Source: Escherichia coli (GTDB lineage Bacteria; Pseudomonadota; Gammaproteobacteria; Enterobacterales; Enterobacteriaceae). Taken from it: a stretch of 64,000 bases of DNA. Positions 6,512 through 64,000 of the stretch are shown here, one piece after another. A program made the translations under genes and the position numbers. The notes beneath the pieces are model-generated. The model worked only from the letters and a program-made list of their open reading frames with translations. It was not told the origin of the DNA and made no database searches. Position 1 is the first letter of the stretch. The number at the start of each line of letters is the position of its first letter. The stretch lies in NCBI RefSeq assembly GCF_003334785.1, contig NZ_QOWV01000012.1; one strand, written 5' to 3'.

Positions 6512-6600
6512 ACCACCGGAATAACCTTCTGCTCCGGCCTGGTGCTTTCACCACGCCACTTTTCCATTTTTCATCTCTGCATATCAGGAAAACCTTCAGT

Positions 6601-6975
6601 ATGAAAACATTACCCGATACACACGTACGGGAGGCATCGAGCTGCCCGTCTCCCGTCACCATCTGGCAGACTCTGCTCTCCCGACTACTGGGCCAGCATT
6701 ACGGCCTTACACTGAATGACACACCGTTCGCCGATGAACGTGTGATTGAGCAGCATATTGAAGCTGGCATTTCACTGTGTGATGCGGTGAATTTTCTCGT
6801 GGAAAAATACGCGCTGGTGCGTACCGACCAGCCGGGATTCAGCACTTGTCCCCGCTCTCAGTTAATAAACAGTATTGATATCCTCCGGGCTCGCAGGGCG
6901 ACCGGCCTGATGACCCGCGACAATTACAGAACGGTAAATAACATTACCCTGGGTAAGCATCCGGAGAAACGATGA
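6601..6975 (+). CDS. cbtA: toxin CbtA (YeeV family, cytoskeleton-inhibiting)
   Basis: 124-aa [79 protein letters not shown]...; conserved antitoxin-toxin order. Confidence 0.75.
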
Positions 6976-10653: not shown

Positions 10654-11760
10654 TTAGTTTTGTACTGTAACTTTATTATCCTTCACAGAGATCAAAACTG
10701 AATCCGTCACCGCTTTGCCGCCTGCAGTTTCACCGCCAATAATCAATAGACTATTATTCCAGGGCAATGATACTCCGTAGGCCCGACCTTGCGATAATTC
10801 ACCCGATTTATCCCATTTCCCGTTATGCCAAAGATGAATATCAGTGCTATATGATTTTTTCAGGCCTTCATGCGCATAGTTCTTACCGTTCTGGTAATTT
10901 TCTCGTGAACCTTTGAATCCGGCCCCTCCGGCAAATATAAGAGAATCATTGCTTATCCCCGCAAAACCGCCAGCTACGCCATCTGGTGATGAGACGGGAG
11001 CAAGCTTATTCCATTTTAAATTATTACCGGTGAAATCAAGTTCAAATACGGCATCCGTTCGCAATCCTGGTTTGGCTTCGCCATTAATAAGCCAGGTTTT
11101 ATCACCTTTATTCACAACCGCCGCACCAGCCGTTCCGTACCAGGGCGATTCGCCAGCGTAACTCCATTGCTGTGTTGAGGGATCAAAAGACAACAGAAAC
11201 TTATTGAAAAAATAATCTTCTGCTTTTTTGTCAAAATAGTGAGCGTTGATTTTATCTATAGCGGTTGAATCTTTTCCAGCCTCGTTGAGATCTTCAAAAT
11301 AGCCATTGAAGATATTCTGGTTAACACCGCCAGTAACATAAGCCTTGCCGTTGTGTACAAAAGTTACATGACCCGCCATGCCCATCGGTGCGTGCGACAT
11401 CAATTTAACCCAACTATTGGTTTTGGGGTTGTATTTGTGTACGTCATTAAATACCTGAGTCAAGCCCTCGCTGTTTTTGCCAATGCCGCCAAACACATAC
11501 AGATTGCCATCAATAAATGCCGAGGTTGCTTGATCTCTTGGTCCACCAGGGAATGCAGCTAACGCTTTCCATTTTTTATCTTTGGCCTGTGTATCCAGCT
11601 TGTACCATGCCGTACCTGCGCTACCTAAACCAATGTAGACAGTGTCGTTATCAATTGCTCCGGTACCACTTTTAAATGGCACAGGAGTTTCCGGTAATAC
11701 AGACGCGTTTGCGGCAAATGAAGCCATCATGATAGCAAGCGCCGTTATTGTTTTATTCAT
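10654..11760 (-). CDS. nanM: N-acetylneuraminate mutarotase NanM (kelch repeats)
   Basis: MNKTITALAIMMASFAANASVLPETPVPFKSGTG... signal peptide plus kelch repeats; 368 aa from the internal Met. Confidence 0.85.
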   Translation of the reverse strand: MNKTITALAIMMASFAANASVLPETPVPFKSGTGAIDNDTVYIGLGSAGTAWYKLDTQAKDKKWKALAAFPGGPRDQATSAFIDGNLYVFGGIGKNSEGLTQVFNDVHKYNPKTNSWVKLMSHAPMGMAGHVTFVHNGKAYVTGGVNQNIFNGYFEDLNEAGKDSTAIDKINAHYFDKKAEDYFFNKFLLSFDPSTQQWSYAGESPWYGTAGAAVVNKGDKTWLINGEAKPGLRTDAVFELDFTGNNLKWNKLAPVSSPDGVAGGFAGISNDSLIFAGGAGFKGSRENYQNGKNYAHEGLKKSYSTDIHLWHNGKWDKSGELSQGRAYGVSLPWNNSLLIIGGETAGGKAVTDSVLISVKDNKVTVQN

Positions 11761-11779
11761 TGTGACTGTCTCCTGTCTA

Positions 11780-12496
11780 CTACAGTTTAAATGACACACC
11801 AATGCGATAACTGTTTTCCGATAAATTATCTCTGCCGTTGTAAACACCCTGACGGTCAAGGTAGTCATATTCTATGTATGGCGTAATATCCGGCGTCATA
11901 TGGTATTGTAGAACAAATGCATTTTCCGTCGCCCATTTCTTATGGTTTGCATAGCGATAATCGTTCTGTTTGCTGTATAGCGTCGTTTGCCATGCGAAGG
12001 TGAAATCACTATTAATATGGTAAGTGACATATCCATCCCAACGATGAACGTTATCACGAGACATATCACCGGATAAGTCTTGTTGTCGGTAAGCTTTCCA
12101 GTCGTAACGATAGCGAATGCCAAAATTAAGATCTTTTGTCGCGTCCCAGGACAGTTTTACGTAGGGTCCGTAGCGTGTGCCGTTGCTGCTAAAATGCGTT
12201 AACATTCCCGGGCGCACCGTCCATTGATCATCAAGTTTAATCGCGTAATTAACATCAACCTGAACATCATTGAGTGCGGCATTTTCCTTTTTATTATCAT
12301 GAATGGTATTCCAGGTATTACTTTCCATACTTGCCCACCATCCATTTTGCCATCCCTCACTGACTTTGAGTCGAGTCTCATAGGCGTGGCTTCCACTACG
12401 ATATCCACCACGTACGTCCAGTGTCGCAGCTTGAGAAATTAATGGTGACGAAAAGCACAGTAATAATACGCCAGAAAGTATTTTAGCCTTTTTCAT
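11780..12496 (-). CDS. nanC: N-acetylneuraminic acid outer-membrane channel NanC (KdgM family)
   Basis: MKKAKILSGVLLLCFSSPLISQA... signal peptide, beta-barrel-like sequence ending ...YRIGVSFKL; 238 aa. Confidence 0.85.
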   Translation of the reverse strand: MKKAKILSGVLLLCFSSPLISQAATLDVRGGYRSGSHAYETRLKVSEGWQNGWWASMESNTWNTIHDNKKENAALNDVQVDVNYAIKLDDQWTVRPGMLTHFSSNGTRYGPYVKLSWDATKDLNFGIRYRYDWKAYRQQDLSGDMSRDNVHRWDGYVTYHINSDFTFAWQTTLYSKQNDYRYANHKKWATENAFVLQYHMTPDITPYIEYDYLDRQGVYNGRDNLSENSYRIGVSFKL

Positions 12497-12920
12497 AAAT
12501 TTCACTCATTTGTAGGAAACAGAAAGCAATACAAAGCCCGCATAAACAATTAGCATTTATGTTGTGTAATATTTTTTTGCCAGGCTTATAGTGTCTTTGG
12601 CAACCGGTAGCTGTATTTTATATTTTTTGTATAAGGTCTCCTGTGAAAAATCTCTTTTCACATTATTTAAATAAACAGAGAGCCAGATTAAATACCTGAG
12701 TATAAAATCTCTTCTGATGTTTAATTGATTTGAATGTTCGTAAGCTATATCACTTACTCAATCCATTTTACCCAGAGTCATAAAATAGAGTGTCTGTTGA
12801 TCTCATTTTCATATTCCTTTCAGACTGAAGTGCATTTTCATCACCCGATGTGAAAGAACTGAAGTGATGTTTGCCATAGATTGCGAGATGCCCTGTCTCA
12901 TTGACTATCTTGGTGCACCT

Positions 12921-12935
12921 TTATACCTGTTATAC
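12921..12935 (-). promoter_or_regulatory. NanR-type operator (GGTATA direct repeats) in the nanC-fimB intergenic region
   Basis: Plus strand TATACCtgtTATACC is the reverse complement of GGTATAacaGGTATA, the NanR hexamer-repeat operator pattern. Confidence 0.45.
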
Positions 12936-13951
12936 CAGATCAAAAATCACGCAATCCATACAACAAAACCAGATTTGCAATTCGTGTCACAAAATATGTC
13001 GATATTTTTCTAAGAAGAAGATGCCATGTGAAGCCAAACGAACACTTGCGGAGGCCTTCACAAACCAAGGGTTGTTATTTAATTATCTGTTTTATAAGTA
13101 ATTTATTTAGAGTATAAACAAGGAAAGATTTGCAAGATAACTCAGTGGGCGTGGTGAAAATAAGTGTTTACCCGCCATCAGGCTGAGCATAATTCTCATC
13201 ATGAAATATGTTTCCTGGTTTGTGGCTTGTAGCTGGTCACTCCTGAAGTCTCTCTGGAGAGGCTTGTTGATGTTGGTGTTTTCAGGATGATGTTTCACTT
13301 AGCTTGTTTGCCGAATAGCCCGGCGAACAGCTGTGATTGAGGAAGGTTTAAGTCGCAGTGACCAAAGCCATATTTACCAACGGATGCAGATGAAAAAATC
13401 ATCTCCTGCTTTCCCCCATATCTCCAGGATAAAAAGGAATGTAACAATCTCATGAACTAAACTGACGAACCAGCCAGGAATAATCGCTAGGGACCTAAGA
13501 ATTAGCCTGATAATAGCTACTAAGAAATTACTGCGTTCCATGAAATAGCCATTTTGTGGCAAATGGAGTTGTCTAATAATGTCATATGTGAGACGGATAG
13601 TTGAACGAATATTAAATTTTGCTGAATTTTTTATGTTGATTTTACTTGTTACAGAACATATCACATGATATATAGATAAGATTAGTTGCATTAATGATGA
13701 GGGTTATTATTAGATTCGTATCCGATTGATAAATATATAAAGGTACATAGCATGCAAGAGCATAGCGTTTGTATGGCAACGTTATTATAAGTAACTGTTG
13801 CTACTCCATTTAAGTTCACTCAGAAGAACTGGTCCACTTACGTTAGTTATTAAGCAAACGTTCGCTTTTATAAACATAATCAGGATAAAAATGTTGGATT
13901 ATTGCTAACCCAGCACAGCTAGTGCGCGTCTGTAATTATAAGGGAAAAACG

Positions 13952-14554
13952 ATGAAGAATAAGGCTGATAACAAAAAAAGGAACTTCCTGACCCATAGTG
14001 AAATCGAATCACTCCTTAAAGCAGCAAATACCGGGCCTCATGCAGCACGTAATTATTGTCTGACTTTGCTTTGTTTTATTCATGGTTTCCGGGCGAGTGA
14101 AATTTGTCGATTGAGGATTTCGGATATTGATCTTAAGGCAAAGTGTATATATATCCATCGATTAAAAAAAGGCTTTTCAACAACGCACCCGCTATTGAAC
14201 AAAGAAGTTCAGGCTTTAAAAAACTGGTTGAGTATCCGTACTTCGTACCCGCATGCTGAGAGCGAATGGGTATTTTTATCGCGTAAGGGAAATCCGCTTT
14301 CTCGGCAACAGTTTTACCATATTATCTCGACTTCCGGTGGTAATGCCGGGTTGTCACTGGAGATTCATCCGCACATGTTACGCCATTCGTGTGGTTTTGC
14401 TTTGGCGAATATGGGAATAGATACGCGACTTATCCAGGATTATCTTGGGCATCGCAATATTCGTCATACTGTCTGGTATACCGCCAGCAATGCAGGGCGT
14501 TTTTACGGCATCTGGGATAGAGCCAGAGGACGACAGCGTCACGCTGTTTTATAG
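13952..14554 (+). CDS. fimB: type 1 fimbriae switch recombinase FimB
   Basis: MKNKADNKKRNFLTHSEIESLLKAANTGPHAARNYCLTLL... tyrosine recombinase, 200 aa. Confidence 0.9.
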   Translation: MKNKADNKKRNFLTHSEIESLLKAANTGPHAARNYCLTLLCFIHGFRASEICRLRISDIDLKAKCIYIHRLKKGFSTTHPLLNKEVQALKNWLSIRTSYPHAESEWVFLSRKGNPLSRQQFYHIISTSGGNAGLSLEIHPHMLRHSCGFALANMGIDTRLIQDYLGHRNIRHTVWYTASNAGRFYGIWDRARGRQRHAVL

Positions 14555-15031
14555 AGATAGTTGAGATACCAGGGATGGTGTTAAAAACTACATTATTCTT
14601 ACGATATATCAAAAATGATTAACCATTTATTAATTGATGTTATTGTAAGTGTGATTATTAATTTTCATAATAAACATTAAGTTAACCATATCCATACAAA
14701 ATACAATGGTTTATGTTCTTAAAAATAAATAAACAAAATCATTCATAAATTTACACATCACTTAAATTCTCCTGTTTCCGCACTTTTTTCTTTATTTTTT
14801 AAGCAACTGGAAGTTAATCCACTGCAATCTATTGTTATATTGAATCAAATCAATGAAAATAGATGTTATCACATCAGTGATATTTTATTTTTGTATGATA
14901 TTTAATGTAATTGACTGATAGCCACATCACTTCGTGTGTGGTTATCTTTTTATCTATTGGGCTAATTTTGACCGATTGAGGTTTCCTATAGGTATTCATT
15001 CAAATATATCTCAGTCAGGAGTACTACTATT

Positions 15032-15628
15032 GTGAGTAAACGTCGTTATCTTACCGGTAAAGAAGTTCAGGCCATGATGCAGGCGGTTTGTTACGGGGCA
15101 ACGGGAGCCAGAGATTATTGTCTTATTCTGTTGGCATATCGGCATGGGATGCGTATTAGTGAACTGCTTGATCTGCATTATCAGGATCTTGACCTTAATG
15201 AAGGTCGAATAAATATTCGCCGACTGAAGAACGGATTTTCTACCGTTCACCCGTTACGTTTTGATGAGCGTGAAGCCGTGGAACGCTGGACCCAGGAACG
15301 TGCTAACTGGAAAGGCGCTGACCGGACCGACGCTATATTTATTTCTCGCCGTGGGAGTCGGCTTTCTCGCCAGCAGGCCTATCGCATTATTCGCGATGCC
15401 GGTATTGAAGCTGGAACCGTAACGCAGACTCATCCTCATATGTTAAGGCATGCTTGCGGTTATGAACTGGCGGAGCGTGGTGCAGATACTCGTTTAATTC
15501 AGGATTATCTCGGGCATCGAAATATTCGCCATACTGTACGTTATACCGCCAGTAATGCTGCTCGTTTTGCCGGATTATGGGAAAGAAATAATCTCATAAA
15601 CGAAAAATTAAAAAGAGAAGAGGTTTGA
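15032..15628 (+). CDS. fimE: type 1 fimbriae switch recombinase FimE
   Basis: GTG start; MSKRRYLTGKEVQAMMQAVCYGATGARDYCLILLAYRHGMRISELL...; 198 aa. Confidence 0.9.
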   Translation: MSKRRYLTGKEVQAMMQAVCYGATGARDYCLILLAYRHGMRISELLDLHYQDLDLNEGRINIRRLKNGFSTVHPLRFDEREAVERWTQERANWKGADRTDAIFISRRGSRLSRQQAYRIIRDAGIEAGTVTQTHPHMLRHACGYELAERGADTRLIQDYLGHRNIRHTVRYTASNAARFAGLWERNNLINEKLKREEV

Positions 15629-15675: not shown

Positions 15676-15989
15676 TTGGGGCCATTTTGACTCATAGAGG
15701 AAAGCATCGCGCACAAACTTTTTCAGTTTATTTGTTGGCTTAATATTCTATTGTTATCTTTATTTATAGATTTTTATATTGCATGAGGTGGTTTTTGGAG
15801 AGAAGAATGAGGAAGATGCGTCGAGCCACAGAAACGTTAGCTTTACATATAGCGGAGGTGATGTGAAATTAATTTACAAGAGAAATAATTTACATATCAA
15901 ACAGTTAGATGCTTTTTGTCGTTTTTTAATATTTTTATGCTTGAGAAAAAATACGTAACTTATTTATGATATGGACAGTTTGGCCCCAA
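15676..15989. promoter_or_regulatory. fimS: fimS invertible phase-variation switch (314 bp) bounded by 9-bp inverted repeats, captured in the fimA-ON orientation
   Basis: TTGGGGCCA at 15676-15684 and TGGCCCCAA at 15981-15989; promoter-like TTGAGA / TATGATA inside the element pointing toward fimA. Confidence 0.85.
15944..15971 (+). promoter_or_regulatory. fimA sigma70 promoter inside fimS (-35 TTGAGA, -10 TATGATA)
   Basis: Hexamers read directly from sequence, about 18 bp apart, immediately inside the right inverted repeat and oriented toward fimA. Confidence 0.55.

Positions 15990-63835: not shown

Positions 63836-64000
<165 letters not shown>

Follow-up and report, generated by a model that had tools for sequence, protein, structure and literature searches.

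Type 1 fimbriae are a major adhesin of E. coli and one of its virulence factors, and it has been known for two decades from K-12 that these fimbriae are linked to the sugars sialic acid and GlcNAc. The closest described counterpart of the site treated here is the operator O_NR of the K-12 nanC (yjhA)-fimB region (Sohanpal et al. 2004, 2007; Kalivoda et al. 2013; Horne et al. 2021). The nanCMS operon is repressed by NanR (PMC3658417), and fimB is activated by NanR and NagC from distant operators (PMC3173223; PMC5401889). NanR dimers bind GGTATA repeats cooperatively, two such repeats being enough for binding with a KD of ~25 nM, and binding is weakened by Neu5Ac (PMC8012715). Genomic SELEX has placed a NanR peak in the nanC/fimB spacer (PMC5934670). 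For the long-range activation of fimB either direct contact or an altered DNA structure has been proposed (PMC5401889), and one review ascribes the effect on fimB to protection from Dam methylation. NanR has also been given the opposite sign, as a repressor of fimB (PMC4797297); this is regarded here as a misstatement, as it conflicts with PMC3173223 and PMC5401889.

The nanC-fimB Spacer

The window, meaning the whole 64-kb stretch of E. coli DNA that was analysed, carries nanC, the first gene of nanCMS, encoding an N-acetylneuraminic acid outer membrane channel (11780..12496, - strand), and fimB, encoding a type 1 fimbria switch recombinase (13952..14554, + strand). Both genes are supported by ORFs and by RefSeq annotation. 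They are divergent, with start codons (ATG) at 12496 and 13952, and the region between them also lies upstream of the gene series nanC-nanM-nanS. The original prediction, made from the sequence alone, described an AT-rich non-coding stretch of about 1.45 kb between divergent nanC and fimB, and the ORFs and annotation bear this out: the intergenic region spans 12497..13951 (1,455 bp) and has a G+C content of 36.1%, against 49.6% for the whole window. Its left edge, previously set at 12505, corresponds to an in-frame GTG upstream of the nanC ATG and has been moved to 12497. The AT-richness of the spacer fits the published coverage of fimB by H-NS from -500 to +150 (PMC3173223).

The spacer is 100% identical to that of several RefSeq chromosomes, which annotate nanC and fimB on either side of it, and it is found in 5,110 of 5,426 complete E. 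coli genomes. None of the RefSeq records compared (the 100%-identical records, the K-12-like record, and the ten-allele set) has an annotated gene there. Relative to the K-12-like allele 59 positions differ (96% identity), and 49 of these fall in 13000-13600. An Rfam scan of 11500-15500 at a permissive threshold gave no match, and RNA folding revealed no excess structure in either the predicted nanC leader (12480-12922, - strand; z-score 0.17) or the fimB leader (13681-13970, + strand; z-score -0.21). A generic scan for sigma-70 promoters and terminators was uninformative, returning five promoter-like sites where 6.5 were expected and missing both the published fimB promoter and the predicted nanC promoter.

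Beyond fimB the fim target system is complete in the window, with the 314-bp fim switch and ORFs for fimA-H. The invertible element lies at 15676-15989 between 9-bp inverted repeats (TTGGGGCCA) and has the opposite orientation to that in the K-12-like record. The fimA promoter (TTGAGA-18 nt-TATGAT) is directed at fimA, and the assembly thus has the switch ON.

The NanR Operator

A NanR-type GGTATA repeat had been predicted at 12921-12935. The repeat is present, one base further along: TATACCtgtTATACC lies at 12922-12936 and occurs once in the 64 kb, with 0 occurrences expected, and TATACCTGTTATACC had no match in 100 dinucleotide-preserving shuffles. On the nanC strand the complete site, O_NR (12914..12936, - strand), reads GGTATAACAGGTATAAAGGTGCA, that is, GGTATA-ACA-GGTATA-AA-GGTGCA, with two exact GGTATA repeats and a degenerate third repeat, GGTGCA. 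These 23 nt are 2 positions off a three-repeat GGTATA operator, occur once in the window, and are identical in the K-12-like record; they constitute the published NanR operator (PMC8012715; PMC5934670; PMC3173223), so that the predicted identity of the site is upheld. The degenerate third repeat makes occupancy by three NanR dimers uncertain. Motif scans had been put forward together with the prediction as a means of checking it, and a scan for GGTATA-N2-3-GGTATA found no second perfect double repeat in the window, leaving O_NR as the only location of the double GGTATA and placing no operator elsewhere.

A Dam site, GATC, lies at 12938..12941, 2 bp from O_NR, and is conserved in all aligned alleles. 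This arrangement fits the published description of NanR as binding no more than 5 bp from the GATC sites at nanA, nanC, and yjhB (PMC5155068). O_NR has the attributes of a Nan box of the E. coli sialoregulon: at least two direct GGTATA repeats 2-3 nt apart, a nearby GATC (5 bp away at most), a position in the promoter region of a sialic-acid operon (nanATEK, nanXY, or nanCMS), and stronger purifying selection than in its flanks. The GGTATA repeat is the NanR operator already known from the literature, and the prediction of it is correct but ordinary.

One further candidate, TATATAAAGGTACA at 13734-13747 in the fimB leader, was considered as a second NanR site and rejected as a chance match, having 3/12 mismatches. 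Matches of this grade number 81 in the window, and ~1.8 are expected per spacer. The sequence is conserved and forms one member of an inverted-repeat pair returned by the repeat finder; had it been a real site, it could have suggested NanR looping to the fimB promoter.

NagC, IHF, and SlyA Sites and the fimB Promoter

Two NagC operators are found on the fimB side of O_NR. O_NC1 (TGCAATTCGTGTCACAAAATATG, 12976..12998) is an exact match to fimB1, and O_NC2 (CATAATTCTCATCATGAAATATG, 13188..13210) is an exact match to fimB2 (Table 1 of PMC3098098). Their spacing is 212 bp, and the same pair was returned independently by a repeat finder. O_NC1 overlaps a CRP-like sequence, TGTGA-N6-TTGCA, at 12976-12991 on the - strand. 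A NagC weight matrix was built from eight published sites, with the fimB sites excluded, and scored at 63,978 positions of the window. O_NC2 ranked first and O_NC1 fifth, so that this second of the proposed motif scans recovered both fimB operators among its top five positions.

Two other positions ranked highly with the NagC matrix. The third-ranking match, GAATTTTCTCGTGGAAAAATACG (6789-6811, score 14.7), lies 53-75 bp upstream of a gene for a Hha/YmoA-family regulator (6560..6736, - strand) in island-like DNA and may be due to chance. The same may be true of the second-ranking position (831-853), which lies within coding sequence.

Three matches to the IHF consensus (WATCARNNNNTTR), each with one mismatch, were found by a consensus scan at 13080..13107, and the centre of this cluster, 13093, is the exact midpoint of O_NC1 and O_NC2. 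For the 189 bp between the two operators (12999-13187) 0.6 such matches would be expected. IHF reportedly binds midway between the NagC sites and helps NagC looping, a finding attributed to Sohanpal et al. 2007. According to PMC5401889, fimB is one of the operons for which two NagC sites and looping are required.

Nearer to fimB are two SlyA operators, O_SA2 (CTAGGGACCTAA, 13487..13498) and O_SA1 (TTAGCCTGATAA, 13502..13513), located from published sequences (PMC3173223). O_SA1 differs by one base, at 13507, from its K-12 version, TTAGCATGATAA; O157 carries T at this position, and the base found in the window is matched by none of the ten other aligned alleles. Since the change takes O_SA1 one step further from the SlyA consensus, TTAGCAAGCTAA (PMC3173223), activation of fimB by SlyA might be weaker in this strain.

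A 5′ UTR of 271 bp has been reported for fimB, with an SphI site located at -203 relative to the ORF (PMC3911127). The UTR length puts the fimB transcription start at 13681 and the 271-nt UTR at 13681..13951 (+ strand), and the SphI site, GCATGC, located at 13750, fits this assignment. Relative to the start, O_NR lies at -767 to -745, O_NC2 ends at -471, and O_SA2-O_SA1 extend from -194 to -168, in agreement with the published SlyA positions. The map of the spacer is internally consistent, as sites taken from three independent papers agree with one another.

Conservation across E. coli

The window was aligned with ten other alleles to give a set of 11, in which spacer identity is 93-97% and alleles differ by up to 6.7%. 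Among the 11, the 300 bp of nanC and of fimB next to the spacer are 97-100% identical, and the spacer therefore evolves faster than the genes beside it. Within the spacer O_NR, the adjacent GATC, and O_NC1 are invariant in 11/11 alleles, as is the fimB promoter block at 13630-13700, and two alleles each have one change in O_NC2. The operator island and the fimB promoter have 0 to 5 variable columns per 50 bp, against 23 in each of the intervals 13046-13095 and 13396-13445. Within the spacer, variability is greatest in the stretch that separates the operator island from the fimB promoter. Between 12896 and 12996 there are zero differences from the K-12-like allele. On the wider scale of complete genomes, 5,104 have the 63-nt block 12913-12975; 4,073 of them carry it without a change, and in another 1,005 it is 95-99% identical.

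The pattern extends to a divergent E. coli-named genome, here called E69, in which 12913-13009 has 2 changes, against 10-39 in neighbouring 50-bp bins, and the flanks of the operator island differ by 15-40%. The only O_NR repeat changed in E69 is the third, which reads GGTACA instead of GGTGCA and is nearer to the consensus. Such a distribution of changes marks a clear phylogenetic footprint over the operator island. The operators of the window are present, unique, identical to those of K-12, equally spaced, and strongly conserved.

Several features of the surrounding DNA vary among strains. Hypervariable patches at 13046-13145 and 13396-13445, together with a 12-nt indel, separate the conserved islands. 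K-12 and most E. coli have a Dam GATC next to O_NC1, which in the window reads GATA (13001-13004, with A at 13004). An exact 41-mer carrying GATA is found in 1,027 of 4,996 genomes, and E69 likewise has GATA. Given this lost GATC and the changed SlyA site (13507), the size of the response could differ from that of K-12. In strain ES4 (NZ_CM184348.1) the nanC-fimB spacer is interrupted by an IS5 element. In strain WWCOL-236 (NZ_CP178552.1) an IS1 stands where homology ends, at ~13688, just past the fimB start, and the DNA from fimB through most of the fim operon is missing. A 3.3-kb contig assigned to an uncultured Bacteroides MAG (CAUHML010000277.1) carries the spacer with exact O_NR, O_NC1, O_NC2, and O_SA2 and is probably a binning contaminant.

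Paralogy with nanXY and a Predicted nanC Promoter

Many genomes have a second match to 12917-12969, located upstream of nanXY. The nanXY upstream region reads TTTTTGATCTGGTATAACAGGTATAAAGGTATA, with three exact GGTATA repeats, and this three-repeat site and O_NR share GGTATAACAGGTATAAAGGT. The region also carries GGTATAACAGGTATAAAGGTATA, which matches the nanC site in its flanking GATC and in its distance from a CRP-like site. The CRP-like half-palindrome is TGTGACACGAATTGCA at nanC (12991..12976, overlapping O_NC1) and TGTGACATCAGTAACA at nanX, and at either gene a distance of 49.5 bp separates its centre from a TATAAC in the first GGTATA repeat. Because the spacing from the CRP-like site is identical upstream of nanC and nanX, TATAAC at 12929..12934 (- strand) is the likely -10 hexamer of nanC.

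Transcription of nanC would then start near 12922 and produce a leader of ~425 nt. With that start the CRP-like site would be placed at about -61.5, NagC at O_NC1 would be a competitor of CRP, and NanR would lie over approximately -15 to +9. O_NR is in the first place the operator of the nanCMS promoter, predicted ~420 bp upstream of nanC, and not just a remote element of fimB. As O_NR overlaps the likely nanC promoter, bound NanR would repress nanCMS.

Short Open Reading Frames in the Spacer

Three short ORFs of the spacer (12901..13101, 13107..13298, and 13374..13691), present at exactly these coordinates, had been judged more likely to be regulatory DNA than genes. For the first two the judgement holds, as both are truncated in most alleles. 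ORF 12901..13101 (+ strand) has a stop at codon 55 in 8/11 alleles, and ORF 13107..13298 (- strand) has an early stop in all ten alleles other than that of the window and has lost its start codon in two. Neither has a third-position excess of variable sites, and they are not genes. Reading frames are not conserved across the 11 alleles for any of the three ORFs, and NCBIfam and Pfam scans of the short ORFs of the spacer gave no hits.

The third ORF is not simply noise. It belongs to a frameshifted remnant of an E. coli-only ORF family (13295..13691, - strand), whose orientation is antisense to both the SlyA sites and the fimB promoter and which is split here into 13374..13691 (105 aa) and 13295..13453 (52 aa), with the C-terminal part in another frame. 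The frame opens inside the fimB leader, at an ATG at 13691, and from there crosses the fimB promoter and the SlyA sites, its longest forms also taking in O_NC2. Members of the family are 105, 131, 135, 195, or 199 aa long, and the intact forms (131-199 aa) have two hydrophobic stretches. Across the aligned alleles the length varies from 73 to 135 aa, with frameshifts.

It is very unlikely that this - strand frame represents a present or recent protein-coding gene (131-199 aa in other lineages), pseudogenised in this strain, in which case the spacer would not be purely regulatory. The ATG opens an intact frame of 131-135 aa in 6/11 alleles, including an in-frame 12-nt insertion, but the frame is broken in K-12, O157, the window, and E69, the last of which has a stop as codon 2. 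A protein search returned 93 clusters of predicted proteins, E. coli-named or unnamed, some of them with memberships from the hundreds to above 1,000. PGAP, on the other hand, does not call the ORF in the annotated records compared, there is no Pfam or NCBIfam match, and a remote homologue search with the 195-aa form against 1.84 billion representatives gave only E. coli variants and one spurious repeat-protein match. A contig search recovered only the E. coli contig in the Bacteroides MAG and E69 and so yielded no sign of the ORF in other species, its sensitivity being limited by exact-peptide seeding. Of the 40 variable sites of the ORF, 8, 9, and 23 are at codon positions 1, 2, and 3, respectively (chi-square p = 0.005), and codon periodicity is found nowhere else in the spacer; by our own estimate an open frame of such length is also improbable by chance at 36-44% G+C. 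Set against this are a middle portion that is read in two different frames among strains, through paired frameshifts, a stop that is often read through to give forms of 195-199 aa running across O_NC2, and conserved N-terminal codons (72) that coincide with the fimB promoter and the SlyA/H-NS region, which is conserved on its own account.

Whatever its origin, the antisense ORF is most likely non-functional in this strain. That the spacer is large partly on account of a decaying or lineage-specific antisense gene, frameshifted in the window, whose antisense transcription or translation might modulate fimB in lineages with an intact form, is very doubtful indeed. Were such modulation real, the sialic-acid response of fimbrial switching would be lineage-dependent.

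The Regulatory Circuit and Alternative Readings

The preferred reading of the locus is that O_NR controls nanCMS and, together with NagC at O_NC1 and O_NC2, raises fimB, and the arrangement of the sites makes it very probable that the circuit is that of K-12. The K-12 literature supplies the evidence for binding, for the direction of regulation, and for the physiological response. Dimers of NanR, a member of the GntR family, would bind the two exact GGTATA repeats cooperatively and the third repeat probably weakly. NanR on O_NR would repress nanCMS and, with NagC on O_NC1 and O_NC2, would raise fimB transcription from a distance of ~750 bp. Uptake of Neu5Ac would release NanR, and its breakdown product GlcNAc-6-P would release NagC. 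On release of the two regulators nanCMS would be derepressed and fimB expression would fall; OFF-to-ON switching of type 1 fimbriae would fall with it, and fewer cells would be switched on. The idea that sites far upstream of fimB modulate switching as a response to sialic acid and GlcNAc, also part of the original prediction, is published K-12 biology, and the operators are identical here. From these identical sites and the presence of the fim switch and fimA-H we infer the same circuit, and K-12-like behaviour, for this strain. The genes nanR and nagC lie outside the 64-kb window, and their presence in the genome is assumed.

A different, very unlikely reading holds that O_NR serves in this strain only as the operator of nanCMS, fimB having been uncoupled by the divergent spacer, the SlyA change, and the loss of a Dam site. 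Differences from K-12 are indeed concentrated in 13000-13600, and O_SA1 is altered at 13507, yet O_NR, O_NC1, O_NC2, the 212-bp spacing, the IHF-like cluster at the midpoint, and the fimB promoter block are all kept. Sohanpal 2007 reportedly found sequences downstream of O_NC2 to be unneeded for fimB activation. The change of GATC to GATA at 13001-13004 could likewise be counted in favour of uncoupling, but the GATA allele is common (the 1,027 genomes above), as expected for a neutral variant. Still less can be said for the view that the GGTATA repeat is a functionless chance feature of AT-rich DNA, the probability of which is negligible. The single hexamer GGTATA/TATACC is frequent, with 31 copies in the window, as are weak two-repeat matches of the 3/12-mismatch grade, but the double repeat was produced by no shuffle, is invariant across the alleles, and persists in the far more divergent E69. 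It is also identical to the published operator and paralogous to that of nanXY, and NanR binding in the nanC/fimB spacer has been published (PMC5934670).

With the K-12-like circuit retained as the preferred reading, O_NR would couple the choice of whether E. coli makes type 1 fimbriae to the host sugars sialic acid and GlcNAc, signals of inflamed or mucus-rich surroundings. Unchanged operators in a non-K-12 allele and in ~5,000 genomes confirm the circuit as conserved in the species. The finding brings nothing new to the biology; the feature is the textbook region for control of nanCMS and fimB by NanR and NagC.

Comparison with Known Systems

Compared with O_NR of K-12, the site has the same 23 nt, the same GATC, and the same distances to the NagC sites, the fimB start, and the nanC ATG. 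The operator itself is unchanged, whereas the allele has its 59 differences elsewhere, including the GATA by O_NC1 and one base of O_SA1. With the operators of nanATEK-yhcH and nanXY (yjhBC), O_NR shares the hexamer, the ACA and AA spacers, the GATC, and a CRP-like site at identical spacing. It differs from these operators, which have three GGTATA repeats, in its third repeat, GGTGCA, in its distance of ~420 bp from the structural gene, and in being shared with the distant fimB promoter. The NagC looping systems of nagE-nagB, chb, and glmU likewise have two 23-bp NagC sites with IHF-like sites between them. In contrast to NagC in those systems, where it is a promoter-proximal repressor, NagC at fimB is an activator acting from ~470-700 bp upstream.
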